Source: Ruditapes philippinarum (Eukaryota). Taken from it: DNA of 22,163 nt. The position numbers were made by a program, and so were the translations under genes. The DNA is taken from positions 1 to 22,163 of the forward strand of contig NW_026851538.1 in the NCBI RefSeq assembly GCF_026571515.1. Direction: 5' to 3'. The notes under the pieces are model-generated. The model was given only the letters and a program-made list of their open reading frames with translations. It was not told the DNA's origin and ran no database searches. Every line of letters begins with the position of its first letter. Positions within the stretch are counted from its first letter, which is position 1. Shown here in pieces: positions 341 through 21,550 of the stretch.

Positions 341-454
341 AATTTGTGTTTGTTCATTACAAGAAATTTAAAATTTAACTCGTTGAATAAAAATAATAAT
401 ATTGAGCCTCTTTAATAATTAATGCCAGCGGCCCGCAAAATATTATTTTATTCA

Positions 455-850
455 ACAAAGTTCAATAAATTCAGTATTAAAACTTCCACTCATTCAATAT
501 CCTCTATTTATCACATACCCGTGCCTCTTTCACGACTCCGTAAATTCTCAATTGCATGGCCTTGCATATAGTTTGACGTGACGTCATTTGCAATACTTGC
601 AAACATAGCGTTAAGATGCTCTAAATGTTACCGTTACAGTACACTACATAGGCAAGTGAGTAAAAAAGGGATTCTTTTCACCATAAAAAACAGTTATTAT
701 GTTGGTTATGTGATATATAGAATATTATATATATGTAAATTCATTACTTAATTTATTGAACTCGTTGAACAAAATGATATTATACAACTTATTCAATAAA
801 TTCAGTATTGAATCAACACTCATTTAATATCCTCTATTTCTGTCTGCTTT
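455..850. repeat. Two copies of a short dispersed repeat (about 455-530 and 785-850: ttcaataaattcagtatt..actcatt.aatatcctctattt). Each is preceded by a small inverted repeat (cgttgaataaaa / ttttattcaac).
   Basis: Direct comparison of 360-530 with 760-850. Confidence 0.5.
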
Positions 851-1230
851 TAATGCTTCATAATATTTATTATATAAGTTCATGTCACCAAGTTTCTAGC
901 TTTTAAATGACAGAGAAATGTCAGCAGGTGCAATTAGATACAGCCACATATGTATGTCTCAATTTATTAAGTTCATATTCTTTGAATAATGTTCACAAAA
1001 AAAACTTGGGCATGGCTTCGACCGAATAACATTCTATAGGCAATAAAAAGAAAGAAAAAAAACAGTTACATGTATATATATTATTGAGAAAATATGGAAA
1101 GACTATAAAATGAATGTATAAGATATATATCTTATTAATAATAGGTTTGTGAAAAATATTTGCATCTACAAAATACCTTTCAAAAACACTGGATCCAAAG
1201 AAGGATACAAGAACGTGGAAAAAAACAATA

Positions 1231-1378
1231 AATTTGGAGAAAATAAACGTTCATACAGTGCTAAAGTATAAATACCCAAGTACTTTCGGCGTATTATGCC
1301 TTCATGAAGGCATAATACGCCGAAAGTACTTGGGTATTTATACTTTAGCACTGTATGAACGTTTATTTTCTCCAAATT
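1231..1378. repeat. Perfect 148-bp palindrome. Two 74-nt arms, symmetry centre between 1304 and 1305 (ccttcatg|aaggcat).
   Basis: Reverse complement of 1305-1378 equals 1231-1304 with no mismatch that I can see. The 69-aa ORF on the minus strand (1166-1375) is the mirror artefact of this palindrome. Confidence 0.85.
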
Positions 1379-3289
1379 TATCTTATTAATAATATATATA
1401 CATGTAAAACAAAAACTAAAATAAAAAAATAAATGTCAATGTATCTTTAACATTTTGTGTTTGTCAATTTCATAATAAAATGTCATTGAGTACCAGTACA
1501 GGAATAATATCTTCACTCTATGAATAAAATGAATTTGGGTCCACATATGGTTTATTGCTTACAAAATTACACTTTTCTGTCACAAAAACAAATCAATAAA
1601 GTTAATAAGACTTGTCAAAAAAATGACCTTCTTGTAATGTATATCTGGGTAAGATATTTTGATAAGATAAAAAATAATCCTAAAAATTATCAAATGTGCA
1701 TTGAAAGAAAAAAAAGGAGTGTTTTGTAAAATTTATTAAACAATAGCATGCAACGGTGCTAGTCACACTGGTTTGACCTAATATTTGTTTAATATTGTTA
1801 TTTAAAGATCCTGTATGTTGTAATCAGGATGTAACAACACTTAAGTAAAATTTTATATATGTATATAAATTATGCTTCTAAAAGATTCAAAACAGTAAAG
1901 AATATGTTAAATATGTAATGCAAATGTTTATAAGCAATATAACTAATCATTAAAATATATGCATTCAGTTCTGATTGAAAGATTTGGCTTAGACTTTACC
2001 GAAATAAATTTCTAATTACCTCCCTTTATTACTTCGGCAATATATTTACAAATAATGCCTTTTGGAACTTACAATATTGATAAATCTCCATTTGAGTATC
2101 ATATTTATGATATAAAAGCATAAAAAAAATTTAAGTTACAGGATCTTTAATATGTAATACCATGATCTTTAATATCATATACACATATTAAGAAAATTTA
2201 AAATCTGATTTACTTATTTTTGTCTGTACCAAGATACATTGTAGCAAAAACTTTTTTCTTCTTCTTCTATTAGTATAAGTTAATATAATACTCATCTAAT
2301 TTCATGTAAGCACTAAAGCCTGTGGTGTAATTGTATCTAATGAAAACATAAATCTTATCTTCTCTATTTTGGTAAGGTTTTAGCATGGCAATGAATACAG
2401 TAATAGGCCATATGGCGAATATTTCACTTTTTTCTGGTGGAGGAAGGGAAGAAAGGCCTCAGGTGCCCCTCCATGTATCAAATTTCAGGGCATGAACGGG
2501 CCACCCAAGTAAACCACTGTAGAACCATCAACGTTTTTGATATGCTTAGCTGGATAGCTTTTTTCACTAAAAAGATTTTCCAAAGTTGTCTTGCAGGGTT
2601 TGAACCTAGAGTGGTAAAGGTCATGTGCTTTGAAGTCAACAACCTTAACTGCATGGCAACAGCGTGTTCTATATTCAATTTCAGAATATGGGAACACAGC
2701 TTTAAAATTTAGCTTCAACTACATATGTATGTCTTGGCTTTGGACTTACATCTATCAGTGAAACAATGGGATGGGTTTAAAACTATGCTAGCTGGCATCA
2801 GCATTTTTCGTACTGCATACATATGTCTCTAGCTGGTGATTAAAATCATTTATTTTCCAGAAATATACTGATTAATATCAGTTATTATTACTCATATAAA
2901 AGTTACTCAGTCCAAGTATGTATGGTATTTTTGAAATTGTTTGATAAGAAATAAAGATATGCATGTATTAAATAATCATCAATGCTTTTATTCACATCTG
3001 TTGAGAAATAGAGGATTTTCATACAGAAAATACTGTTTTACACTCAGCCGCCCACACTCCACATTCACCTAGAAACTAGTTTCCCTGTGGAAAAAACCTG
3101 GCAATAAATTAACAGGTTAAAGTGAAACAAGAGCCATGTCAACATGGCCATCCCCTGCCGAATGTGTTTGCTCGTTGGAAGAATGTATATGTAGTAGAGC
3201 AGAATAACTCCATTTTAAGAGGTCTTTTGGTAATGAAAACTGATGGCTATAGTGATTACAGATTTGAAACCTATGTGAATACTAATGGC

Positions 3290-4067
3290 TGAAAATAACA
3301 AAGGGCAATAACTGAAAAATAATGCAGAGTAGGTTATCATTCTTGTGTGCTGCATTCCTCCTCAGTAAAATCTATCCACCTATGAAGTTTCAAGTTGATA
3401 CCTCAAATACTTTTTGAGAAAAAAATTGAATTGAAAAATTAAGTATGAAAAATAACAAAGGGCAATAACTCAAAAATAATACAGGGTAGAGTTATCATTC
3501 TTAAGCACTGCACTCCTCCTCAATGGGATCCATCCACCTTTGAAGTTTCAAGTTGATACCTCAAATACTTTTTGAGATAAGCTCTGGACAAAATAGCATG
3601 AAAAAAAACAAAGGGCAATAACTCAAAAATTGTATAGGAAAGAGTTATCATTCTTGCGCACAACATACCTCCTCAATAAGATCTATCCACCTATGACATT
3701 TCATGTTGATATCTCAAACACTTTTTGAGTTATGCTCCACTCAGGTGAAAAATTAGGTATGAAAAATAACAAAGGGCAATAACTCAAAAATTATGAAAGG
3801 TAGAGTTATCATTCTTGTGCACTGCACACCTCCTTAGTGAGATCTATGCACCTATGAAGTTTCATGTTAATATCTCATAGGCTTTTGGAGTTATGCTCTG
3901 GACAAAAATCAATTTTGAAAAATAACAAAGGGCAATAACTCAAAAATCATGCAAGATAGAGTTATCATTCTTGTGCACTGCACTCCTCCTCAATGAGGTC
4001 TATCCACCTATGAAGTTTCAAGTTGATAACTCAAATACTTTTAGAGATATGCTCCGGACAAAAATGT
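3290..4067 (+). repeat. Tandem array of about 5 copies of a ~145-166-bp unit. Unit: ..aaaataacaaagggcaataactcaaaaat..agagttatcattcttgtgcactgcactcctcctcaatg..tatccacctatgaagtttcaagttgatacctcaaatactttttgag... BIV160/Cg170-type bivalve satellite family, subfamily 1.
   Basis: The motif acaaagggcaataact recurs at about 3298, 3464, 3608, 3769 and 3925. The similarity to the bivalve satellite is from memory only, not from a search. Confidence 0.85.
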
Positions 4068-5014: not shown

Positions 5015-6957
5015 ATGTTGCATTTCCTTTCAATGTGGGTTGGCCATTGATGAAGTTTAATTGAATTACTCTGTAATAAGTCCAGAAAGACAAAGAAAAG
5101 GAACAAAGGGCAATAACTCTATAAGTCTGTATTTTGTCAAATGGAGTTATTGTTCTTGTGCACTGCACTTCCTCTTAATATCCTTGACAACTGTATGAAG
5201 TTGTATTGAATTCCAAACAGTAGTTTTCAAGTTATGCTCTGGACAAAGAAAAGTAACAAAGGGCAATAACTCTGTAATTAGTCAAGATAGAGTTATGGTT
5301 CTTGTGCACTGCACTTTCTCTTCAATGTGCTTGACCATTGTTTGAAGTTATATTATTTCCAACCATTAGTCTTCAAGTATGGTCCAGACAAAAAAAGGCA
5401 ATGGAAAAGTAACAAAGGGCAATAACTCTGTAATTACTTTTAGATAGAGTTATGGTATTTTGTGCACTGCACTTCCCCTTATTGTGTTTGACAATTGTAT
5501 GAAGTTGTTTTGAATTCCAACTAGTTGTTTTCAAGTTTATGCCTCGGACAAGGAAAAGTAACAAAGGGCAATAACTCTGTATTAGTCAAGATAGAGTTAT
5601 TGGTTCTTATGCACTTGCACTTCCTCTCAATGTGCTTGACCATTGTTATGTAGTTATATTGACATTCCAACCATTAGTCTTCAAGTTATGGTCCGGACAA
5701 AAAAGGAATAGGGAAAGTAACAAAGGGCAATAACTCTGTAATTACTTTAGATAGAAATTATGGTTCTTGTGCACTGCACTTCCCCTTTTGTTGTTTGACA
5801 ATTGTGCGAAGTTTGTTTTGAAAATTCCTAACAGTAGTTTTCAAGTTATGCACCGGACGGAAAAAGTAACAAAGGGGGCAATTACTCTGTAATTAGTCAA
5901 GATAGAGTTATGGTTCTTGTGCACTGCACTTCCTCTCAATGTGCTTGACCATTGTATGTAGTTATATTGAATTCAAACCATTAGTCTTCAAGTTATGGTC
6001 CGGACAAAAAAGGCAATGGAAAGTCAAAAACTCTGTTTAATAACTTTAGATAAAGAGTTATGGTTCTTATGCACCTGCACTTCCCCTTATTGTGTTTGAC
6101 CAATTGTAATGAAGTTGTTTTTTGAATTCCAACCAGTTAGTTTTCAAGTTTATGACCCGGACAAGGAAAAAGTAACAAAAGGCAATAACTCTTGTAATTA
6201 GTCAAGATAGAGTTATGGTTCTTGTGCACTGCAACTTCCTATCTATGTGCTTGACCATTGTATGTAGTTATATTGAATTCAAACTATTAGTCTTCAAGTT
6301 ATGGTCCGGACAAAAAAAAGCAATTGGAAAAGCAACAAAAGAGCAATAACTCTGTAAATTTACTTTAGATAGAGTTATGGTATTTGTGCACTGCACTTCC
6401 CCTTATTGTGTTTGGGCAATTGTATGAAGTTGTTTTGTATTCCAACCAGTAGTTTTCAAAGTTATGCCCCGGACAAAGGTGGAAAAGTTAACAAAGGGCA
6501 ATAACTCTGTAATTAGTCAAGATAGAGTTTTATGGTTCTTGTGCACTGCACTTTCCTCTCAATGTGCTTGACCATTGTATGTAGTTATATTGAATTCCAA
6601 CCATTAGTCTTTCAAGTTATGGTCCGGACAAAACAAAAGCAATGGAAAAGCAACAAAAGGGCAATAACTTGTAATTACTTTAGATAGAGATATTTGGTTC
6701 TTGTGCACTCCACTTCCCTTATTGTGTTTGACAATTTGTATGAAACGTTTTGAATTCCAACCAGTTGTTTTCAAGTTATGCCCCGGACAAGGAAAAGTAA
6801 CAAAAGGGCAATAACTCTGTAATTAGTCAAGATAGAGTTATGGTTCTTATGCACTGCACTTCCTCTCAATGTGCTTGACCATTGGTATGTAGTTATATTT
6901 GAATTCCAACCATTAGTCTTCAAAGTTATGCTTCCCGGACAAGGAAAATGCAAACGG
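5015..6957 (+). repeat. Tandem array of about 12 monomers of ~155 bp, organised as a higher-order repeat of two alternating variants. Type A: ..attagtcaagatagagttatggttcttgtgcactgcacttcctctcaatgtgcttgaccattgtatgtagttatattgaattccaaccattagtcttcaagttatggtccggac. Type B: ..attactttagatagagttatggt.tttgtgcactgcacttccccttattgtgtttgacaattgtatgaagttgttttgaattccaaccagtagttttcaagttatgccccggac. Same satellite family as 3290-4067, but a distinct subfamily.
   Basis: acaaagggcaataact-like anchors at about 5102, 5257, 5411, 5563, 5717, 5868, 6030, 6175, 6335, 6495, 6650 and 6805. A/B alternation read by eye. Confidence 0.85.
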
Positions 6958-7149: not shown

Positions 7150-7905
7150 ATGCATAAAAAATTGTCCCAAAAAAGGCACAAAATTTTCAGTAGTTTATGG
7201 AAAATACCAGCTTACAAGCAAAAACCTTTACCAAGAATTTCTAAGCCGCAAAAAAGAGGCATAATTATGAAAAAAAATAAGGGTTATGGGACTTGTGCCA
7301 ATCATGTTAAATAATCACTGAGAAACAAGTGTGTAAAATTCCAATCCATTCCCTTTCAGTATTTATGGAGATACCAGCTTACTCGCATAAACTTAACCAA
7401 GAAATTTTCTAAGTCGAAAAAGGGGCATACTTATGCAAAAAAGCAAATCAGAGTTATGAAACTTGTGTCAATCATGTTAGATAATCACAGAGAACAAGTG
7501 TGTGAAGTTTCAATCCATTCCCTTCAGCTAGTTATGGAGATACAACCTTACACGCAAAAAACTTAACCAAGAATTTCTAAGTCGAAAAAAGGGGCATAAT
7601 TATGCAAAAAAAAGCAATTCAAAGTTATGGGACTTGCGCATATCATGTTAGATAATCACAGAGAACAAGTTTGGTGAAGATTCAATCTATTTCCTTCAGT
7701 AGTTATGGAAATACCACCATACACCGCATAAACTTAACAAAGAATTTCTAAGTCGAAAAAGGGGCATAATTATGCAAAATAGCAAAATCAGAGTTATGGG
7801 GACTTGTGCCAATCATGTTAGATAATCACAGAAAACAAGTGTGTGAAGTTTCAAATCCATTCCCTTCAGTAGGTAAAAAGAATACCAGCTTACACGCTTA
7901 CATTT
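7150..7905 (+). repeat. Tandem repeat, about 4.3 copies of a ~160-180-bp unit (..cagtagttatggaaataccagcttacacgcataaacttaaccaagaatttctaagtcgaaaaaggggcataattatgcaaaa..agttatgggacttgtgccaatcatgttagataatcacagagaacaagtgtgtgaagtttcaatccattcccttcag).
   Basis: Unit starts at about 7188, 7366, 7525, 7698 and 7868. Confidence 0.75.
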
Positions 7906-8179: not shown

Positions 8180-9180
8180 GACAGATAAGAACAAAAAACC
8201 ATTCAAGAGCCAATTTGCTTGACTAGAATTTATGGAAAGAGAAGGGGGGGCTAATTCCTTAAAAACTGCTTGCAGAAATTACCTGCCCTTGATAAATAAA
8301 CAACTTAACCCCTTTCCCTCATGAGTTATATTGGTCGAAACAAGAGGGCCATGAAATGCCCTGAGGTCGCTCAACCTGTTTATAGGCCCAAGACGAAGAC
8401 GGTTGAATCCACTAGGTCACCCTTGAGAATATTTCAGGGGAGGCTTATAAAAATGGCCTTTTTCATTGAAAAGCCCCCTGGGTTACAAGTTAAAACTGAT
8501 TAATGAAAACTATTGAAAAAATTTGCCCTTAAATACTAATCAAAACTTGGGCACACCATGTTGAACTGGACCATTGCCTTTGTAAACGACTGCTTCAGTT
8601 TAAATTTCCGTTTACCAAAGCAACGAGGGGACGTCCTCAAAATACCTAAATTCCCATATTTTGCCTTCGGATTTTTTTCCATCAAGTGCTGAACTTCTAA
8701 GGGGTTTGAGATAGAGTCAAAGGCTTTTCAGCCCTTGGTTACACATTACCCTTTTTGATCGATCTGGGATCATTTTCAACCTCTCACAAGTACAAAATTT
8801 CTTTTTGGGCGATGGGAAAGGGGATTGCCCCCCCCCTTCAAACCCCCCAAACAGAAGGGGCACCACATCCCCCCTTCCTGGCAACCCCCTGATGTATCTT
8901 TTTTGGATGGGGGAACCGCTCCGGAAAAAATTGCTTCACTTTTCTTAAGCAACATATTCTCCAACGAAAACATATAATTTGGGGCCCCCCAAATAGGACA
9001 TTTTCTCACTATTTGAGGCCTAAAAGGGGGGGGGGTCGAAAGTGTGTTTGTTTTCGCGTATATTATAGGTAAAGGGTTAAGTGAAATAGTGATCTTGATT
9101 TTGTTTGTTTTTATTGTTTTTTTTTTGTTTTTGTTTTTTTCAATAAAATTAGAAAAAAATAACAAGACCTGTCAAAAGGA
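8180..9180. other. Homopolymer-stuttered, G/C-run-rich block (gggggggg, ccccccccc, gggggggggg). Part of it is a noisy copy of clean sequence nearby: 8224-8290 vs 9241-9300, and both relate to the ggggcataattatgcaaaa motif of the 7150-7905 repeat.
   Basis: Direct reading. gaaggggggggctaattccttaaaaactgcttgcagaaattacctgccc vs aaaaggggaccataattttgcaaaactgcttggcagacccttacctagcc. Confidence 0.4.
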
Positions 9181-10020
9181 CAACAGGTTCCTCGTTTTTT
9201 TTTCAGTGCTGGGATAGTGTAATTTAAAATTCACAATATAAAAAGGGGACCATAATTTTGCAAAACTGCTTGGCAGACCCTTACCTAGCCTTAATAGTGA
9301 ACTTGTTTTCAAGTTTTGAACATTAATTGTTCTTTTTATATAGATAAAGGCAAAACACTCTAAATAAAAAAACCGGAGATGGTTAACAAAATATTGCTTT
9401 CCAGGATTATCTTCCCTTTAGAAATGGCCATTTCAAAATTTTACCAGGTGAAAAAGAAGTAGAAGGCAAGAAATGAATGAAGAAGACTGTTTTTTATTTT
9501 TGCGACTTACTTATCTTTTTTGGAAGTTGTAAAATCTTTTGGAATTCTGGACTCCCAATGGTAGTAACTCGTTTCTGCCAACACTTTTTGATTGTCAAGT
9601 AACACTTATTCATCTCTTTCCTCTTTCTTGCAGATCGTGTAGTGCTTTTTTCAAGACGTGTCTGTAGCTAAAAAATTTAAATAAAGTTAATAGAAACATG
9701 ATTTTCCCTGTTAGTTTCAGTCCCATTTATATATTTAGGAAAATACGTTGGGAGGACTGAAACAAGGTCGGATAAGACAAGGGAGTCGTTGAAAATCAGG
9801 GGGTGGCTAAGGCAGTCTTGACTGTAACTTGTAAATTTTTTCTTAATCAGCTAATAATTCACCCTTAACAGATAAACGAATAATTAGCTTTGCTTGATAG
9901 TAACACCAAGATCCTTGATAACAAAGAACTTTAAACAAATGGGTCATGATGGCCCTGAAATCACTCACATGAATTTTAAAAACTCTTCCATGACAAGGAA
10001 CAAGTAAAATTGTAAACTAT

Positions 10021-11000
10021 AAAACAAAAGCAGATATAAAATCTAAATCTTAAACTGATATCACAAAGTTCATATTTGGTATCACAGAAATAGTGCATGT
10101 GTAAAAACAATACTGGTTGCTATTGCAAAGGGAAAACAACAGTTGCCACAGATGTGTACAATAGGGAAAAATCAATGACCCCATGGGGCAAATTTTCACC
10201 AAAGAGCTTTTATTTAAACAACTTGGTAAACTCTTATGAGACAATGTATCATGCTTAATATCTAAGCTCTATCTATTTGGTTTCTTTAAAAGAAGATTAT
10301 TTAAAGTTTTTACTATATACATATAAGGAAATCAATGACAGCCCAGGACAGGGCCAATATTGACCCAAGTCTTTTTATTTGAACAATTTACTTGGTAAAT
10401 ATTCACTAGAAAATGTTTCATTTTTAATATCAAAGCTCTAGCTATTTGGGTTTTCTCAAAACAAGATTTTATTTTTTTTTTCTATGTGCATATAACGAAA
10501 ATCAACTACCCACTTAGGCAGGGCCAATTTTGACCCCAGAAAATTTATTTGAACAAACTTGGTAAACACTCACTAGAAAATGTTATATCCTTAATATCTA
10601 AGCTCTAGCTCTTTTTTAAAAGATTTTTTTTTTACTATATGATGATATACAAATTAGGAGAATAAATTACCCCCCCCCCCCCCCCTCCCCGGGGCAGTGC
10701 CAATTTTTTACCCTAGAGCTTTTATTAAATAAACTTGGTACAATAAATTTAGTAAATGTCTCAATTAGTGATTGCTCTAGCACCTAGCTCCTTTGGTTTA
10801 AAAAAATAAAATAAATAAATTTTACTATATACATATAAGGAAAATCAATGACTCCCAGGGCAGGGCCAATTTTGACCCAAGGCCTTTTATTTGAACAAAC
10901 TTGGTAGACACTCACTTGAAAAAGTTTCATGCCTAATATCTAAGCTCTAGCTATTTGTGTATTTTTTCTGAAGAAGATTTTTTTTAGTTTTTCTTATATA
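10021..11000 (+). repeat. A ~130-bp header (aagcagatataaaatctaaatcttaaactgat..gtgcatgtgtaaaaaca.tactgg..cagatgtgtacaat) followed by about 5 tandem copies of a ~170-185-bp unit (tatatacatataaggaaaatcaatgac..cagggccaattttgacccaag..ttatttgaacaaacttggtagacactcac.agaaaa.gtttcatgcttaatatctaagctctagctatttg). One copy carries a poly-C run (10668-10690).
   Basis: Copies at about 10160, 10330, 10500, 10650 and 10840. Confidence 0.7.
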
Positions 11001-12869: not shown

Positions 12870-14262
12870 AGTCAAAATGTGATCACCAGAGTGTTCACAA
12901 GGTTTTTCCATATTTGGGCGGCGTGACCTAGTTTTTGACCCCAGGTGACCCATATTTGTCCTTCACCTAGAAATTATCAAAACAAACTTTCAGAGCAATT
13001 TCAAGTACTTTTTATTAAAACAGTAGTCACTAGAGTGTTAACAAGATTTTATATTTTTAGCTCCTGTGACCTAGTTTTTTCATCCAAGATTACCCATGTT
13101 CGAACTCATTCGAGCAATAAAGCTAGACAAGCGTCCTAAAAATCCTGAAAAAGTTTAATGATGATTGAGGCAAAAATGTGACGTTAGAGTGTTAACGAAC
13201 AAATGTGGACGGACGACAGTCGACGGACGACTGACATTTAACAATCCTAAAACCTCACCCTGAGCAAACTGTAAAATCTAAGCTTTGAGCATTATAGGTT
13301 GAAACAAGATGAAATAAATGTGTTTTCCTAGGATATAAGTCTACATAAACAAAAGGGCCCTGATTATGAAGGCTCAATCCCATATTATTTGGGCTGACCT
13401 GTGTGACCTAGTTTTTGACCCCAGATGATCCATATATACAATGTACTTGACCTCAAAATTTCATTTAAACAACCTTTCTGAACAATTTTCCTGGATATTT
13501 GGATCAAAAAACAAAAGCTTCTATAGTGTGTTTACAAGGTTTTTCCATAATATTGCTGTGTTGCCTTGGTTTTTAACACTAGTTGACCAATATTTGAGAT
13601 TGACCTAGAAATCACCAATACAACCTGTCTGACTGATTCCTAGATATTTGAATCATAACAGTAGTATCTAGAGTGTAAACAAGGTTTTTCCAGATATTGG
13701 TCTGTGTGACCTACTTTCTGACAAAAAGTGACCCATATTTAAACTTGACCTAGAAATTATCATAACAACCTTTCTGACCAATTTCTAGGATATCTGGACT
13801 GGAACAGTAGCCCCTAGAGTGTTTACAAGGTTTTCCAATACTTATGCTGTGTGACCTAGTTTTTTGACCCAAGGTTGAACCCATGTTCTTACTTTGCCTA
13901 GAAATCACCATAACAACTTTATTGACCAATTTCCAGGATATTTGGTTCAAAACAATAGCCTCTAGACTAGCAAGGTTTTTTCATATCTGGGCAGTGTGAC
14001 CTAGTTTTTGACTATCGATGACCTATATTCCAATTGAGATGGAAATGATATAAACAACCTTTCTGACCAATTTCAAGGATATTTGGATCAACATTGTAGC
14101 CTCTAGAGTGTAAACAAGGTTTTTCCATATTTGGACAGTGTAACCTAGTTTTTGACCCAAGGTAACCCATATTCAAACTTGACCTTGAAATTATCATACC
14201 ATCCTTCCTGACCATTTTCCATGACATTCTATGATAGCCCCTAGACAAGTGTGTACAAAGTT
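12870..14262 (+). repeat. Tandem array of about 9 copies of a ~148-bp unit (..agagtgtttacaaggtttttccatatttgg.c.gtgtgacctagtttttgaccccaggtgacccatatttg..cttgacctagaaattatcataacaacctttctgaccaatttc.aggatatttggatcaaaacagtagcc.ctagagtg..). Interrupted at 13140-13380.
   Basis: gtgacctagttttt anchors at about 12924, 13067, 13401, 13560, 13706, 13852, 14000 and 14143. The small minus-strand ORFs 13750-13950 and 14012-14248 are periodic repeat artefacts. Confidence 0.8.
13205..13245 (+). repeat. Degenerate (GGAC)-type microsatellite relic inside the array: gaacaaatgtggacggacgacagtcgacggacgactgac. Resembles 4050-4110.
   Basis: Direct comparison with ggacaaaaatgtcggatggaaggacggacgg at 4055-4085. Confidence 0.45.
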
Positions 14263-14664: not shown

Positions 14665-14973
14665 CTATATAAAATCTTTTGAAATTGTTCCTTCTTGTAT
14701 TACACACAGCAGATCATATCCGGATGCCCCACGCTTAGTCATACAGTCAGCCAAATGATGTTTCCCTGGGCACCATCGAATTTCTTTGACTTCATTTCTG
14801 GACAAGGATTCGCTGATTGCAGCTATATCTACACGAAGACGCTTGTCATCTACTAGCTTGGTTGAATTCACAGCTTCTATTACACTTCTATTGTCCACAT
14901 AAGCAATTATTGGTATTGTGTGATTGGGTATCCTTAGAGCGTTTTCGATCATTTTGTCTGTAATAATATCCAC
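14665..14973 (-). CDS. Copia RNase H C-terminal segment (102 aa; YVDNRSVIEAV .. VDIAAISE .. HHLADCMTK). Overlaps the RT ORF in a different frame, which is the second frameshift.
   Basis: ORF track, plus the copia-typical C-terminal AD..TK motif. Confidence 0.6.
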   Translation of the reverse strand: MDIITDKMIENALRIPNHTIPIIAYVDNRSVIEAVNSTKLVDDKRLRVDIAAISESLSRNEVKEIRWCPGKHHLADCMTKRGASGYDLLCVIQEGTISKDFI

Positions 14974-15964
14974 ATTCTAATCCTTCTTGTAAACTGAGAG
15001 CTTCAGCAGCAATTGTTGATCGTACTACCCTTTTTATTTTGTTGGTATGCCAGAAAAGTGGACAACATTTTCCAGAAGTGTCCATTAACCATACTATATA
15101 AGCCGCAGTGCTCCCTGTTCCAGAATTTATGTTGCACAAAGATGCATCTGTGAAGACTGCAATCTTCCAATCACCTACAAAGTTGCTCAATTGTGGGAAT
15201 CTTATAAAAGACTTGAAGTTTTTCAATCTGTTCACTGCTTTGATCGCCTGAGATAGATCACTCATTGTAGCTTCCTTGAGTTTAGTGCTCAAGTCTATCA
15301 ACTCAAATGCCATATCGGGCCTTGTTCCTTGCACTACCCAGTTAATCTGACCAATGATTTTCCTGAAAAGAGTCTGTTCTTCAGATGTTAATACTTCCTG
15401 TTTATTCTGGACTCTCTTTGTGTCAATCTGTCTGCTCTCTATGTTTTCCACATATCTAGATTGGTCCAGAATAATTGCATTGCTCTCCTGAGAAATCCTG
15501 AAACCAATATAATCAAACTGTCCTTTTTCAATTTTTCCTGCAACAAATCGTTTTCGTAATTTAGTCAGGACCTTCTCCAAACATTCATCACCAGCATGAA
15601 GAAAATCATCAACATGACAACAAATAATGCCGTTAAGCTTGTCTCCAGTGTGCAGAAAGAACATTGCTGGATCCATCTCTGATATATGACACCCTAATCT
15701 AATTAACTCGTCTTTCACACTTAGATAGAATTGTCTTGCTCCGTCTTTGAGGCCATAAAGTCCATGTTTAAGTTTCCAAATTATTCCAGCGATAGTGTCA
15801 CTTTCCTTTGGAGGTTTAATGTAGACTTCCCTCCGAATTTCTTTTCCCTGTAGAAACGCCGACTTTATATCTGTGGTTTTTACAATCCAATTATTTACAG
15901 CTGCAAGTGCAAGAAATGTTCTAAGTGTTCCTTTTCCCACTGTTGGACTGTCACTTTGCATCAC
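14888..15964 (-). CDS. Copia reverse transcriptase and the N-terminal part of RNase H (358 aa). Motifs: DIKSAFLQG, YGLKDGARQFY, CCHVDDFLHAGDE (YXDD box), QGTRPDMAF, IAVFTDAS. Different frame from both neighbouring pol ORFs.
   Basis: Motifs in the ORF track. 15964 and 18272 are in different frames. Confidence 0.8.
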   Translation of the reverse strand: MMQSDSPTVGKGTLRTFLALAAVNNWIVKTTDIKSAFLQGKEIRREVYIKPPKESDTIAGIIWKLKHGLYGLKDGARQFYLSVKDELIRLGCHISEMDPAMFFLHTGDKLNGIICCHVDDFLHAGDECLEKVLTKLRKRFVAGKIEKGQFDYIGFRISQESNAIILDQSRYVENIESRQIDTKRVQNKQEVLTSEEQTLFRKIIGQINWVVQGTRPDMAFELIDLSTKLKEATMSDLSQAIKAVNRLKNFKSFIRFPQLSNFVGDWKIAVFTDASLCNINSGTGSTAAYIVWLMDTSGKCCPLFWHTNKIKRVVRSTIAAEALSLQEGLECGYYYRQNDRKRSKDTQSHNTNNCLCGQ

Positions 15965-15974
15965 ATATTCTTCC

Positions 15975-18272
15975 TCAAATCCGCGTACAACAAGTCGAGC
16001 CTTTGTTTGACCATTTTTTGTGAGTTATCACCCATCTTGTTGATAAAGTTACCTGACCATAATCTTGAACTTCTTCATATGTGCCAAAGTGTTGCAGCTT
16101 CTGAAGTTCACAAATTTTAGCAGATGTGACTTCATCATCAGCACAAGTCTGTTTCATTACCAAATTAACCTCATTTGTTAACATTTTCCATTGAACTGCC
16201 TCCAGATTAATACTCTTCTTCTCTTTGCTGATATCTTCCTCTATATTATACCAAAACTTGTTTCTGCCTGTTGCTTTTCCAGCCCTTCCTAGTATTTTTG
16301 CTTGTATCCACTGATCTGTATCCTGTGCTCTATATTGTATGTTGTCATTTGCCTTCAATGTCCTTTCTTCAGGTGGAATATTTTGAATGTTGTTTTCCAA
16401 ACTAGCTGATGATCTATCTGACATGTTTGACTGCAAGTTCTTAAATGGATCTGAGGATGGTATGTCCTCGTTTATGGTCTGCATACTTGTCTGATCTGAG
16501 GTTTGCTGGTCAGCTAATGTGCCCTCATTAGCATTGCTTCTTTCTTCTTCCAGACTTTCATAACTGTTTGCCTCACGATTATCAGAACTCATATAATCAT
16601 TTACCCTCTGCAGCCTATTAGGCGATACTCGCACAAACACTGCTCCATGTCTAACAAACACCACTTTTCCATCTTGAAATACCACCTTTCCAGGTCCAAG
16701 CCAACGCTCTTTTCCCTCTCGCTTGTAGAAAACATTATCACCATGTTCAAAAACTTGTTCAGAAGCCCTTACTTTATTACGTAGAGCTCTCCTTATTCTT
16801 TCGTCAGCTTCCGACTGAATGAATGCTCTCCGAGCAGCATGCAAAACATTCAAATGCCTTGCAAATTCCTCACTGCTGGTGGTCCCTTGTAATGCAGGCA
16901 AGTTTTCACTCATAATATTGGGAATATTGGGGTTCTGCCCAAAAACAAGCTGATGACTGCTAAAACCATTCCACATCTGTAAAGAATTTCTTGCCATATT
17001 CGCCCATGATAGTAACGTCTGCAAGTCTACTTTCCCACAATCTGCCTGTAACTTAATCAGCATCATATCTGTTATAGCATGCACTCTCTCACATAAACCA
17101 TTCTGAAATGGACTTTGACCAGATGTTGTGCATAATTTAATGTTCAGTATTGACGTGATCTCTCTTACTTCATCTGAATTGAATTCACCACCGTTGTCAG
17201 TCATTAATGAGCCCATCATGCCAAACTTACCTACCCATTCCCTCATCAGTGCATCTATAATCTTTTCTGGCTTCTTTCTGTTGATAAACGTTGACACCGT
17301 ATATCTGGACCACATGTCTATAATGTGTAAAATCCAGCAGCCGTTCCATTGCTTAAGATCCATCGCAACTTTTTCATTGAACTTGGAAGCCATAGGCATA
17401 CCTACGACAGGCCTTGATGGAGTTTTTGCATACATCTTGCAAAGTTCACAATTGTTAGTAATGAGATCAAGAGTTTCCTCAAATTCTTCTCTCCAGATAA
17501 CTGCATCTTTCATAAGTGCTGACAGCCGTTTCTTAGGTGGGTGTGCAAATTGCCTGTGCAATTTCACAAATGTTTTGTATCTCTCATTTTTGCTTAAATC
17601 ATCAAAGTTTACAGCACAAACACTTTCTACAGGTACCTCTACCGTCTTATCTATCGGAATACAGTAATGACCTGATGTTGTCAAATTTAAAGCCACCTCT
17701 TTTCCCATAATGCTAGCTGTGTCGTTTTCTAGATCCATTTTTATAGCAGCCCTCTTCATTGCTGTCCGAGACAATAACAGGGGAATGTCCGACTCCACAA
17801 CATCTGTTTTGATGAAAACATCTTTGCCAGCAATCACTGCAGGTATACAGTATTCTCCTTTTGATGTTAGGCATGTCCCACCACCAAACTTGAAAACTCT
17901 CTGACTATCTAACTGTGTTACTCTCTGTTTATCTCCTACATCTAATGACTGTATATAGTTATTTATCCAGTTTTTACCACACACTGTACTGCTGCAAGCA
18001 CTATCAAGAACAGCACAATTTCGAGCATCTACACCCAAACGCTGAATCTCATCCTTATTGTAACCTGTAAACAATACTGCATGTTCCTCTTCAACAGCAT
18101 TCACTTTCTTCATGTTTTCCCAGCTATGGGGGCATGCCTGTAGCAGATGCCTATATGAACCACAAGACTTGCAGGTAAGCGTTCTTCCATCTGGACCAAT
18201 AGGATTGATGTTCTTTGCAAGACCTTTTCTGTGACTGTCTTGAGCAATGTCTGAACGCTGAAACTCTTTCAT
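15975..18272 (-). CDS. Copia gag(C-term)-protease-integrase ORF (765 aa). CCHC zinc knuckle CKSCGSYRHLLQAC. Aspartic protease VLDSACSST. Integrase HHCC (HRQFAH..CELC) and DDE core (HIIDMWSRY .. TDNGGEF .. CERVH). An acidic/Ser-rich linker, then the start of RT (TLSTRWVITHKK). Frameshifted relative to the downstream RT ORF.
   Basis: Motifs read from the supplied translation. Domain order PR before IN before RT is diagnostic of Ty1/copia. Confidence 0.8.
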   Translation of the reverse strand: MKEFQRSDIAQDSHRKGLAKNINPIGPDGRTLTCKSCGSYRHLLQACPHSWENMKKVNAVEEEHAVLFTGYNKDEIQRLGVDARNCAVLDSACSSTVCGKNWINNYIQSLDVGDKQRVTQLDSQRVFKFGGGTCLTSKGEYCIPAVIAGKDVFIKTDVVESDIPLLLSRTAMKRAAIKMDLENDTASIMGKEVALNLTTSGHYCIPIDKTVEVPVESVCAVNFDDLSKNERYKTFVKLHRQFAHPPKKRLSALMKDAVIWREEFEETLDLITNNCELCKMYAKTPSRPVVGMPMASKFNEKVAMDLKQWNGCWILHIIDMWSRYTVSTFINRKKPEKIIDALMREWVGKFGMMGSLMTDNGGEFNSDEVREITSILNIKLCTTSGQSPFQNGLCERVHAITDMMLIKLQADCGKVDLQTLLSWANMARNSLQMWNGFSSHQLVFGQNPNIPNIMSENLPALQGTTSSEEFARHLNVLHAARRAFIQSEADERIRRALRNKVRASEQVFEHGDNVFYKREGKERWLGPGKVVFQDGKVVFVRHGAVFVRVSPNRLQRVNDYMSSDNREANSYESLEEERSNANEGTLADQQTSDQTSMQTINEDIPSSDPFKNLQSNMSDRSSASLENNIQNIPPEERTLKANDNIQYRAQDTDQWIQAKILGRAGKATGRNKFWYNIEEDISKEKKSINLEAVQWKMLTNEVNLVMKQTCADDEVTSAKICELQKLQHFGTYEEVQDYGQVTLSTRWVITHKKWSNKGSTCCTRI

Positions 18273-18283
18273 GCCTGATTTTC

Positions 18284-18523
18284 CTAATTTCCCCTTTTCC
18301 AGTTTCCTCTGCTGCCTCCATTATAATTCCCTTGTTGAATTCTTAATTTGGAGTAACCTGCAGCAAGTAGCGCCTCTTCATTTGCTGCAAGAAAAGCAGG
18401 TTCTAGTTTGATACTTGAGCTGCCACTTGACATATTCATGTCATTACCCTTAAACTTTTTCAGTGACTTCTTAGCCTGTTCGTACAATGTAGCTTTTTCA
18501 TCATAATTCACCACCAGTCCCAA
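18284..18523 (-). CDS. Short gag-like ORF fragment (79 aa) upstream of the main gag-pol ORF. The N-terminal part of gag is presumably lost in the stuttered block 18530-19105.
   Basis: ORF track; its position relative to the zinc-knuckle ORF. No recognisable motif of its own. Confidence 0.35.
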   Translation of the reverse strand: MGLVVNYDEKATLYEQAKKSLKKFKGNDMNMSSGSSSIKLEPAFLAANEEALLAAGYSKLRIQQGNYNGGSRGNWKRGN

Positions 18524-18529
18524 AGACTA

Positions 18530-19105
18530 GCACCGCCCTCCCCTTGGAAATGTTCCGCCCTCAGAAAGTAGTTTTAAAAGCCAAAAAATTCAGCAGGCAA
18601 ATGTCCCTACTTTTCCCTTTTAATTTCCCTATCTTTTAATCAAAACGTACCATATTTATTTAAAAATTTGGGTTGGAGAAACTTAATAAAATCCTTTCCA
18701 AAAAAACCTAATTTTTTTAAATGTCCCGTTAAAAACCAAACCCCTTTTTGGAAAATGTGGTCCCCGAAATAAAGAAAGTCCCAAACCAAACATCATTTTT
18801 AAATCCCCGTTTGTATTGGTTTTAAAAAATTTCAGTATTTTAGATTCATCATCCCCTTGGGGAATGATAAAGCCCAAAATTAAAACCCCCTTTGTCTTTT
18901 TTAAAATTCTGGAATTTTCCCCCCATGCCAAAAAATTTCCCGTTTTTAAAAACCTTAAAACTTCCCTTCCCCTTTTTTTAGTTTTGGAGGATTTATCCCC
19001 GGTGCCCCTATTAAACCCCTTTAAATGTTAAAAAATACCCAAAATGTTAGAAAATAACAAATGTCTAACTTTTGTAAAAAAACCTGGAATAGTTTCCCCT
19101 CCCCT
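18530..19105. other. Homopolymer-stuttered block inside the copia element, between the 5' LTR and the recognisable gag (e.g. tccccgaaataaagaaagtcccaaaccaaac, ccccttttttt, ttttttt). It should contain the PBS and the gag N-terminus but is unreadable as such.
   Basis: Direct reading. Same doubled-base texture as 1-340 and 8180-9180. Confidence 0.4.
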
Positions 19106-19780: not shown

Positions 19781-21550
19781 ATGGCTGTGCCTGGTAAAAA
19801 GTCATCTCAGAAACTGTCATCTACACTATCTCAAGGTGGTGCTGAAGATTTTGACATTTTCTGTGAAATATGCAACCAAGATGACATCAGACTACCTGCC
19901 TTTGGTTACTGTGTCGATTGTGAGGAACATTTATGTCAAACTTGCTTTTACACTCACAGACGACCAAAACCACTACGTCATCACCAACTTCTAGATAAAG
20001 ATCACATGCCACATAAACAAAACCTCCATAAGTCATTAAAATCTACTTCTGGTGGAAAGACAGCTGATTTGACAAAGTCTTGTCCTAAACATACAAATGA
20101 AATTATCAAGTTTTTTTGTCATGACCATAACGCACTTATATGCAGTGTTTGTGTGACCCTTCAACATACACCAACATCCTGTCAAGTGGACTACATACCT
20201 GATATATCAGGACAGATTTTAGACAGCATGGAGTTCAAAGAAACTCTAAAAGATATTGACAAATTAACAGACAAATGCTGCCAGATTACAAAAGATCTGA
20301 AACATAGAGTTGCTAAATCAACAACTTCTCTGAAAGATGCTATAGTAGAAATAGAAAACTTTAGAAAAGAGATAAACAAAAGATTAGATGAACTAGAAAA
20401 GGAAGTTAAAGATACTGCAACAAAAATCCAACATGACAACAACAACAAGTTGAAAACAACAGAAACAACATGTGATGACATCAACAAATCACTCCAAGCA
20501 TCAGCTGATACTCTAAAACATCTCAACACCAACAAGAAAACTGACCAACTGTTTACTGAATTGAAAATAGCTCAGCAACTGATATTACACAATGAAAATA
20601 TAATTACACAACTACCAACAACCAATGATGTTGATGAATACACTTTTGAACCAAATCAAGCAATCAAAAAACTCCTTCAGAATGAGAAATCATTAGGAAC
20701 ATTGAGAACAAAGGAACCAAAGAAACTACCTCCACCAATGGATAAGGCTGCATTACCAATGAAAATGTCTACCCCTAGAAATATCAATGTTAAAACTTCC
20801 TCAGATATTGATGAATGCTGGATTACTGGAATAACTGTCTCTCCTCGGAACAAATTATTTGCAGCAGATTACCAAAATGAATCAATTAAAATGATAGACA
20901 TAAAAAGTGGAGCAATCAAACAATTACTGCTTGAATCAAACCCCTGGGATATCACCATGGTGACCAGAGATACACTTGCTGTTACATTACCAGTCATTAA
21001 AACAATACAGTTCATTTCCTTCTCCTCAAACTCTCTCTCATTGAAAAACAAACAGAAAGTAGATGGATCTTGCTACGGAATAAGCCATCATCAGGGGAAA
21101 CTTGCAGTTACCTTTATATATCCTGGTGAACTCAAAATCATGGACTTGAGAGGTAATATTAAAACTACAGTTGAGAAATATTCCAATGGCGACAGTATTT
21201 TCAGTGGCCCTTCGCATGTCATCACAAACAGCAATTCAATCTATATAACTGATAGAGGCCAAAAGGAAGTTACATGGTTTAACTGGCAGGGAGAGATGAT
21301 AGGAAGGAATGTAGACATTAAAAGTCCAAGGGGTATTTCACTGTTAGATGACGGGTCCCTCTTTGTGAGTGATGGCGGGAATAATTGTATATATAGAGTA
21401 AGTGGTGACTTTAAAGATAAGACAACTATACTGGAGGGTGTAGAGGATCCTCGAGTTGTATGTTGGTGTGCTGAGACCAGTACACTTTATTTTAGTACAC
21501 ACAGCAACACAGAGAGTGACAATATTATCAAAATATATAAAATGATGTAG
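19781..21550 (+). CDS. Uninterrupted 589-aa ORF for a RING-less tripartite-motif-like protein. B-box1 (aa 28-67: C-x2-C-x11-C-x2-C-x4-C-x2-C-x3-H-x7-H). B-box2 (aa 100-133: C-x2-H-x8-C-x2-H-x4-C-x2-C-x4-H-x4-C). K/E/L-rich coiled-coil region (about aa 150-300). C-terminal NHL-repeat beta-propeller-like region (about aa 340-589, repeated ..I.V...G.I.V.D.GN..I..F.. blocks). TRIM2/3/71-like B-box/CC/NHL family.
   Basis: Cys/His spacing read directly from the translation. Long ORF with coding-like composition. The family assignment is by domain pattern, not by a search. Confidence 0.72.
   Translation: MAVPGKKSSQKLSSTLSQGGAEDFDIFCEICNQDDIRLPAFGYCVDCEEHLCQTCFYTHRRPKPLRHHQLLDKDHMPHKQNLHKSLKSTSGGKTADLTKSCPKHTNEIIKFFCHDHNALICSVCVTLQHTPTSCQVDYIPDISGQILDSMEFKETLKDIDKLTDKCCQITKDLKHRVAKSTTSLKDAIVEIENFRKEINKRLDELEKEVKDTATKIQHDNNNKLKTTETTCDDINKSLQASADTLKHLNTNKKTDQLFTELKIAQQLILHNENIITQLPTTNDVDEYTFEPNQAIKKLLQNEKSLGTLRTKEPKKLPPPMDKAALPMKMSTPRNINVKTSSDIDECWITGITVSPRNKLFAADYQNESIKMIDIKSGAIKQLLLESNPWDITMVTRDTLAVTLPVIKTIQFISFSSNSLSLKNKQKVDGSCYGISHHQGKLAVTFIYPGELKIMDLRGNIKTTVEKYSNGDSIFSGPSHVITNSNSIYITDRGQKEVTWFNWQGEMIGRNVDIKSPRGISLLDDGSLFVSDGGNNCIYRVSGDFKDKTTILEGVEDPRVVCWCAETSTLYFSTHSNTESDNIIKIYKMM

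Follow-up and report, generated by a model that had tools for sequence, protein, structure and literature searches.

What kind of event leaves a long palindrome without a single mismatch in the genome of a clam? The locus that raises this question lies in Ruditapes philippinarum, on contig NW_026851538.1 of assembly GCF_026571515.1, of which positions 1 to 22,163 of the forward strand were analysed; this whole stretch of 22,163 nucleotides is referred to below as the window, and all positions are counted from its first letter. A preliminary description, made from the letters alone, had noticed a perfect palindrome beside a flanking direct repeat and had offered several readings of it, namely a very young structure, the insertion of a foldback-type element, or an artefact of chimeric or inverted reads. 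We found the palindrome to be part of a discrete segment which probably entered the genome as a real insertion made by snap-back synthesis, in which a nascent strand folds back and copies itself.

Anatomy of the palindrome and of the insert

The two arms of the palindrome, at 1228-1304 and 1305-1381 on the plus strand, are each 77 nt long and 100% complementary, giving a structure of 154 bp with 0 mismatches and no spacer at its centre, gccttca/tgaaggc, where a BspHI site (TCATGA) is located. Perfection and the absence of a spacer had both been described correctly, whereas the extent previously assigned, 74-nt arms at 1231-1378, was too short. Immediately beyond both arms, complementarity drops to the background level. 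The next-longest spacerless palindromes in the window had arms of 10, 9 and 9 nt, and a 30-mer from the arm occurred in the window at two sites only, with up to 3 mismatches tolerated (shuffle expectation 0). When 1050-1420 was folded as single-stranded DNA, an energy of -106.7 kcal/mol was obtained (z = -24 against shuffles).

Read along the plus strand, the locus consists of the left flank, one copy of a target site duplication (TSD), 84 nt of unique sequence, the 77-nt arm, its reverse complement, the other TSD copy and the right flank. The unique 84 nt (1144-1227, plus strand; 32% GC, as against 23-26% in the flanks) occur once in the insert, have no inverted repeat and are contiguous with the left arm; since they are joined to the left arm only, the insert resolves into a primary copy of 161 nt (1144-1304), of which they form the proximal part and the left arm the distal 77 nt, plus an inverted copy of that distal part. 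Position 1304 is the turn-around point. The right arm, the reverse-complement or snap-back copy of 1228-1304, adjoins the right-hand repeat directly, with no counterpart of the 84 nt. Its last 3 nt (TAT, 1379-1381) are common to the right TSD copy and constitute a microhomology at the junction; depending on how they are assigned, the insert spans 1144-1378 or 1144-1381, ~235 bp, and the inverted copy measures 74-77 nt.

The insertion is recent, and the proposal that the palindrome is very young was upheld: 0 differences were seen over the 77-nt arms and the 16-nt repeat, and these about 90 compared sites imply, by our estimate, a pairwise divergence of less than roughly 3%. Central deletions readily arise in long perfect palindromes, which likewise argues for youth.

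A second, decayed palindrome lies 450 nt upstream, at 712-840 (centre 776); its 64-nt arms are 73% complementary with a 1-nt spacer, and it is built from a ~75-nt unit with a further occurrence at 437-520 (minus strand). An earlier event of the same kind may have produced it.

A duplicated target site brackets the insert

The direct repeat that flanks the insert, TATCTTATTAATAATA, is exact over 16 nt and occurs in the window only at 1128-1143 and 1379-1394 (both plus strand, offset 251); when one mismatch was allowed, it grew to 19 nt (1125-1143 and 1376-1394). The last 3 nt of the palindrome are also the first 3 nt of the right copy. The repeat had previously been reported as 15 bp, and it is real, with right-hand coordinates (1380-1395) that were about 1 nt off. 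Exact 15-mers that recur within 400 nt are very rare in the window once tandem arrays are excluded, amounting to about a handful, and a direct repeat abutting the end of the palindrome is therefore not attributable to chance. Its size, 16 nt exact or 13 nt plus 3 nt of microhomology, fits the ~7-20 bp expected when long or short interspersed elements (LINEs or SINEs) insert by target-primed reverse transcription (TPRT).

An older, imperfect inverted repeat of the target allowed the repeat to be assigned to the target rather than to the insert. Its left arm, at 1066-1094, pairs with 1379-1407, a partner that covers the right TSD copy and continues into the right flank; over 29 nt the two are 90% complementary, and 20 nt are perfect (1066-1085 and 1388-1407). 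Because this older repeat crosses the junction between the right TSD copy and the flank, the two must be natively contiguous, and the direct repeat is duplicated target. Deletion of 1144-1394 rebuilds a continuous AT-rich site, ...GATATATATCTTATTAATAATATATATACATG..., in which the older inverted repeat is uninterrupted across the junction of repeat and right flank. The earlier characterisation of the repeat as TSD-like thus held, in that it brackets a discrete ~235-bp segment whose removal leaves a continuous site. The target is itself hairpin-prone, being an imperfect inverted repeat rich in (TA)n with a loop of ~51 nt in the reconstructed empty site.

Each boundary of the duplication is an ATA^TAT step, set on the left in an (AT)4 run at 1123-1130 and on the right in an (AT)4A run at 1392-1400. 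The hexamer ATATAT takes up 0.4% of positions over the first 3 kb, and 0.09% over the window as a whole. As ATATAT is its own reverse complement, the two boundaries present the same nick context on each strand, 13-16 nt apart.

A snap-back model of the insertion

In the model that we propose, the two strands would have been nicked 13-16 nt apart, each in a short (TA)n run, leaving 3' overhangs. The plus-strand 3' end ...AATAATA, which closes the left TSD copy, would then have primed synthesis from 1144 to 1304, with a template that came from elsewhere. On reaching 1304, the growing strand would have quit that template, folded back and primed on itself, a fold-back probably seeded by a short natural palindrome around ccttca/tgaagg; because such a palindrome in the template would supply the loop and the first base pairs, a centre without a spacer is what the model expects. 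Self-copying back to 1228, over 74-77 nt, would have yielded 1305-1381, whose 3' end ...TTTAT could have annealed to the other overhang through the TAT microhomology, and fill-in of the gaps would have duplicated the target. The model predicts that the donor contains a short palindrome at the turn-around, around CCTTCATGAAGG.

The enzyme was most likely the reverse transcriptase (RT) and endonuclease of a retroelement, acting by TPRT. That the feature is a real, recent ~235-bp insertion made by retroelement-type TPRT with a snap-back inverted half has, in our judgement, about an even chance; of the two forms that snap-back synthesis may have taken, RT-mediated copying carries that even chance, and DNA-templated copying is unlikely. 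If TPRT was responsible, the insert would be a heavily 5'-truncated copy with its sense on the minus strand and its 3' end, ...CACAAACC, at 1144, together with a head-to-head inverted partial copy; on the plus strand the junction 1143/1144 reads ...AATAATA/GGTTTGTG. By analogy, a Penelope-like element (PLE) of the Naiad type would be the best-fitting candidate, with a LINE as the second. The likeness to PLEs is one of architecture only, as homology could not be shown. A snap-back insertion is a known by-product of target- or break-primed synthesis, not a new kind of element.

Comparison with known systems

When the R2 protein carries out TPRT in human cells, a 'snap-back' class of 5' junctions is obtained, in which the 3' end of the cDNA primes synthesis complementary to the cDNA before joining (PMC11371274, PMC11331408), and self-annealed hairpins and inverted duplications have been described at the breaks made by L1 (PMC11702581). 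The clam insert resembles these products in that the primary copy meets one TSD copy with its 3' end, the end of the cDNA is prolonged by its own reverse complement ahead of the 5' junction, and there is little microhomology at the other end. However, the R2 and L1 products arose from known templates in human cells, experimentally or somatically, whereas the clam allele is either germline-fixed or assembled, and its insert carries neither poly(A) nor a known LINE or SINE tail. Twin priming by L1 also produces a retrotransposon insertion with an inverted 5' portion and a TSD. As Ostertag and Kazazian reportedly described it in 2001, that process inverts a different segment of the RNA without duplicating it; the inverted part of the clam insert, in contrast, is an exact duplicate of the adjacent 77 nt, and a twin-priming reading was rejected. 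Also rejected, on general knowledge, were readings as a Helitron or as the footprint (P nucleotides) of a hAT element: Helitrons are free of TSDs, and excision footprints measure only a few nt.

PLEs are strongly 5'-truncated, and an inverted copy, likewise 5'-truncated, often lies directly beside them (PMC8557442, PMC3846280); the palindromes at their inverted junctions have been read as self-priming (PMC3846280). Canonical PLEs have a hammerhead ribozyme in their pseudo-long terminal repeat (pLTR). The Naiad clade of PLEs is devoid of hammerheads; its preferred targets are (TA)n, and in bivalves its copies number tens of thousands (PMC8557442, PMC3846280). The clam insert shares with these elements the 5' truncation, the head-to-head inverted partial copy with a palindromic junction, and a short TSD (PMC8557442, PMC3846280). 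The 161-nt unit and its 77-nt reverse complement correspond to the head-to-head inverted copy of PLEs, in an orientation deduced from the geometry of primer and TSD. Its target lies in or beside (TA)n, it is as free of hammerheads as Naiads are, and its host is a bivalve, a group in which Naiads are the dominant transposable elements. It differs from PLEs in that an RT, a GIY-YIG domain, a pLTR and the 30-40-bp 'tail' are not recognisable in its 161 nt.

Searches for a donor, homologues and coding content

A number of results weigh against the assignment of the insert to a retroelement, and some against the insert itself. No donor or template was found in the window or in viral, prokaryotic and metagenome collections, and no further copy of the arm or of the 161-nt unit was detected in the rest of the window by sensitive blastn (best E = 0.06). 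The insert has no protein-level relative by word-index search and no Pfam match in any frame, and scans of Pfam and Rfam revealed no RT, endonuclease, pLTR or hammerhead motif in it. A coding insert was rejected: its longest open frame, 50 codons, was equalled or exceeded in 348 of 2000 shuffles (17%). At the presumed 3' junction, 1143/1144, there is no poly(A), A-run or simple-repeat tail. The TSD of 13-16 nt is longer than the 8-10 bp of rotifer PLEs (PMC3846280). Reverse transcription is deduced from the scar, and an identical one would result if a DNA polymerase had copied DNA from an ectopic site. Finally, the contig has stretches that resemble uncorrected long-read sequence.

Further copies of the arm, whose pursuit the preliminary description had suggested, were absent from the window and from the metagenome, viral and prokaryotic collections; exact 26-28-mers of the insert gave 0 matches in the metagenome, viral and prokaryotic genome collections. 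A 22-mer from the flank matched an unrelated bacterial metagenome contig (L001) that has no blastn similarity to the window, and this match was set aside as chance. A permissive scan of 1000-1500 by Rfam E-value returned no hammerhead and no selenocysteine insertion sequence (SECIS) match. Exact look-up found no identical protein on record for an open reading frame (ORF) of 69 aa that spans the palindrome, for the TRIM ORF described below, or for the Ruditapes proteins P0001 and P0002; for P0010 it returned only a 2.2-kb JGI contig of a paralogue. Neither these look-ups nor the DNA scans yielded a second copy of the locus.

When the frames of the insert were searched with phmmer against 1.84 billion representatives, a single marginal match was obtained (P0121, E = 5.8e-4). 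It was rejected as chance because just 33/45 nt of its contig, L002, match the insert, in a TRIM-like B-box coding region. L002 (JGI metagenome 3300042712, contig Ga0454322_060858) is a 1.1-kb contig that includes TRIM-like B-box coding sequence and a long inverted repeat at ~300-846, in which about 300-343 pairs with 796-846 and further repeats lie inside. Either it is host DNA of a clam that bears an inverted duplication of its own, or short-read assembly has produced a chimera.

Alternative explanations

Two alternatives, one technical and one biological, compete most directly with RT-mediated snap-back synthesis. A chimeric or fold-back molecule, or an error of polishing or gap filling, could have added the inverted duplication, or a real palindrome could owe its perfection to the consensus; we hold this to be unlikely. 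Perfect identity and the lack of a spacer would be in keeping with such an origin, and foldback artefact reads exist in long-read data, where the palindrome takes in the entire read, with the midpoint of the read as its centre (PMC12870357). The window also shows abnormal homopolymer stutter at 1-400, ~8400-9300 and ~18500-19100, of which ttttggggaaaaac and ccccttttttggaaaatg are examples: within 1-400 the mean run length was 2.0-2.1 (1.46-1.48 expected) and 55-61% of bases lay in runs of >=3 (25-27% expected), and 31-418 is a stuttered copy of 437-799, 62% identical to it. These stretches suggest uncorrected long-read sequence, or locally thin support, at the contig end and in internal patches, and so raise the prior for artefacts. 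The palindromy at the locus, however, ends after 77 nt on each side, the flanks of 1.2 kb and 20 kb are non-palindromic, and there is no adapter-like spacer, so that a whole-read foldback or missed adapter was rejected on geometry. Nor do artefact models predict a 16-nt target duplication, a joint with 3 nt of microhomology or symmetric ATA^TAT boundaries; run-length statistics are normal at 1000-1600, and the decayed palindrome at 712-840 shows that inverted duplications are native to the region. The artefact that had been suspected earlier, from chimeric or inverted reads, is therefore a poor fit, with a palindromy of just 77 nt and a target duplication that it leaves unexplained, and keeps only the low probability just given. 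The biological alternative dispenses with RT: in MMBIR (break-induced replication that microhomology mediates), fork stalling and template switching (FoSTeS) or end joining of the polymerase theta type, a 3' end would invade ectopic DNA, copy 161 nt, snap back over 77 nt and re-anneal 13-16 nt behind its point of departure through the TAT microhomology, creating the short duplication. As its scar would be identical, we regard this as a serious rival, albeit one to which we give a rather low probability. Like the clam locus, palindromes from the repair of double-strand breaks by MMBIR or polymerase theta snap-back show intrastrand fold-back priming, no spacer and microhomology at the exit junction. 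An insert with neither a poly(A) tail nor homology to transposable elements, and a target inside an older inverted repeat with (TA)n runs, a type of sequence that stalls forks, point the same way, and snap-back or templated insertions are documented for alternative end joining and MMBIR, for example in PMC4912351 and PMC8421209. On the other hand, a clean 13-16-nt duplication with ATA^TAT at both ends resembles two endonuclease nicks more than a random break, and the host genome is full of active retroelements known for leaving exactly such a structure. Polymerase theta usually produces templated insertions of tens of nt rather than 235, and repair palindromes are as a rule either of that size or very large, as chromosomal foldbacks, typically lacking a 161-nt ectopic segment within a clean duplication.

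Far less weight attaches to the two remaining explanations. That a transposase inserted a foldback element, a miniature inverted-repeat transposable element (MITE) or a hairpin element of another type, with a long TSD, is highly improbable, although the segment is discrete, lies between direct repeats and contains a long hairpin. The palindrome lies inside the segment and off centre, as the 84 unique nt are all on one of its sides, and the two termini show no inverted repetition (local score 8 when the first 40 nt were compared with the last 40 in reverse complement; shuffles 7.1 +/- 1.4); since terminal inverted repeats are lacking, this is not the architecture of a foldback element or MITE, and the earlier suggestion of a foldback-type element was abandoned. 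No second copy was found in the window, and the known superfamilies of eukaryotic DNA transposons make TSDs of 2-10 bp, for which 13-16 bp would be atypical. We consider a functional hairpin-RNA or microRNA (miRNA)-like gene more improbable still. If transcribed, the locus would form a perfect stem of 77 bp, and generic models of miRNA precursors do score there; yet all Rfam matches fall far below their gathering scores and are mirrored on both strands, as with any long hairpin (the best, MIR2606, reached the same 75 bits on either strand, where the gathering score is 139.7). The precursors of conserved animal miRNAs are, moreover, unlike a long perfect stem.

Genomic context

The insert sits in AT-rich intergenic DNA of 23-30% GC, about 18 kb from the nearest intact gene, and for this reason has no evident bearing on gene function. 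An intact single-exon ORF of 589 aa at 19781-21550 (plus strand) encodes a TRIM71-like protein with B-box and NHL domains; it is up to 86% identical to proteins of R. philippinarum and 54-59% identical to the best Mercenaria proteins, and belongs to a very large gene family of venerid clams (151 homologues with E <= 0.001, mainly from Ruditapes and Mercenaria). At 14665-18272 (minus strand) lies the body of a Ty1/copia element, in which a frame break separates a 765-aa ORF with an integrase core (rve) from a 358-aa ORF with RVT_2.

Five tandem arrays, at 3292-4065, 5121-6948, 7186-7897, 10209-10614 and 13467-14228, are built of 145-170-bp units, with periods of 289-341 bp for the double unit, and together occupy 3.3-14.2 kb; they are either satellite-like or internal repeats of bivalve MITE-like elements. 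A segment at ~2392-2650 (minus strand) resembles a tRNA-derived SINE, with the B-box-like motif ggttcaaaccc, and is flanked by the 9-nt direct repeat GCATGGCAA at 2383-2391 and 2651-2659; the segment may have arrived as a SINE, with the repeat as its TSD. ARAGORN called no tRNA at this segment, and neither a tRNA nor an Rfam family at threshold was found anywhere in the window.

Significance of the locus

If real, the locus is a clean natural snap-back, or self-primed, insertion that has not decayed, so that target duplication, microhomology joint and turn-around can be read to the single base. Such outcomes have so far come mostly from engineered human-cell systems or have been left as unexplained 'complex inverted structures' of PLEs. 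The ATA^TAT nick context offers a testable hint as to the endonuclease responsible. A perfect palindrome as large as this one is fragile and difficult to sequence, which makes the locus a useful checkpoint of assembly quality. Overall, we regard it as a neat specimen of a known outcome, in a clam, and not as a new system.

A bolder possibility, to be treated as a long shot, is that the 235-bp unit is a fresh copy of an undescribed family of short non-autonomous clam retroelements, mobilised by a (TA)n-specific Penelope-like endonuclease/RT and regularly integrating as self-primed hairpins. If that were true, perfect palindromes would be seeded throughout the genome, and with them potential loci of hairpin RNA or small interfering RNA and fragile sites.

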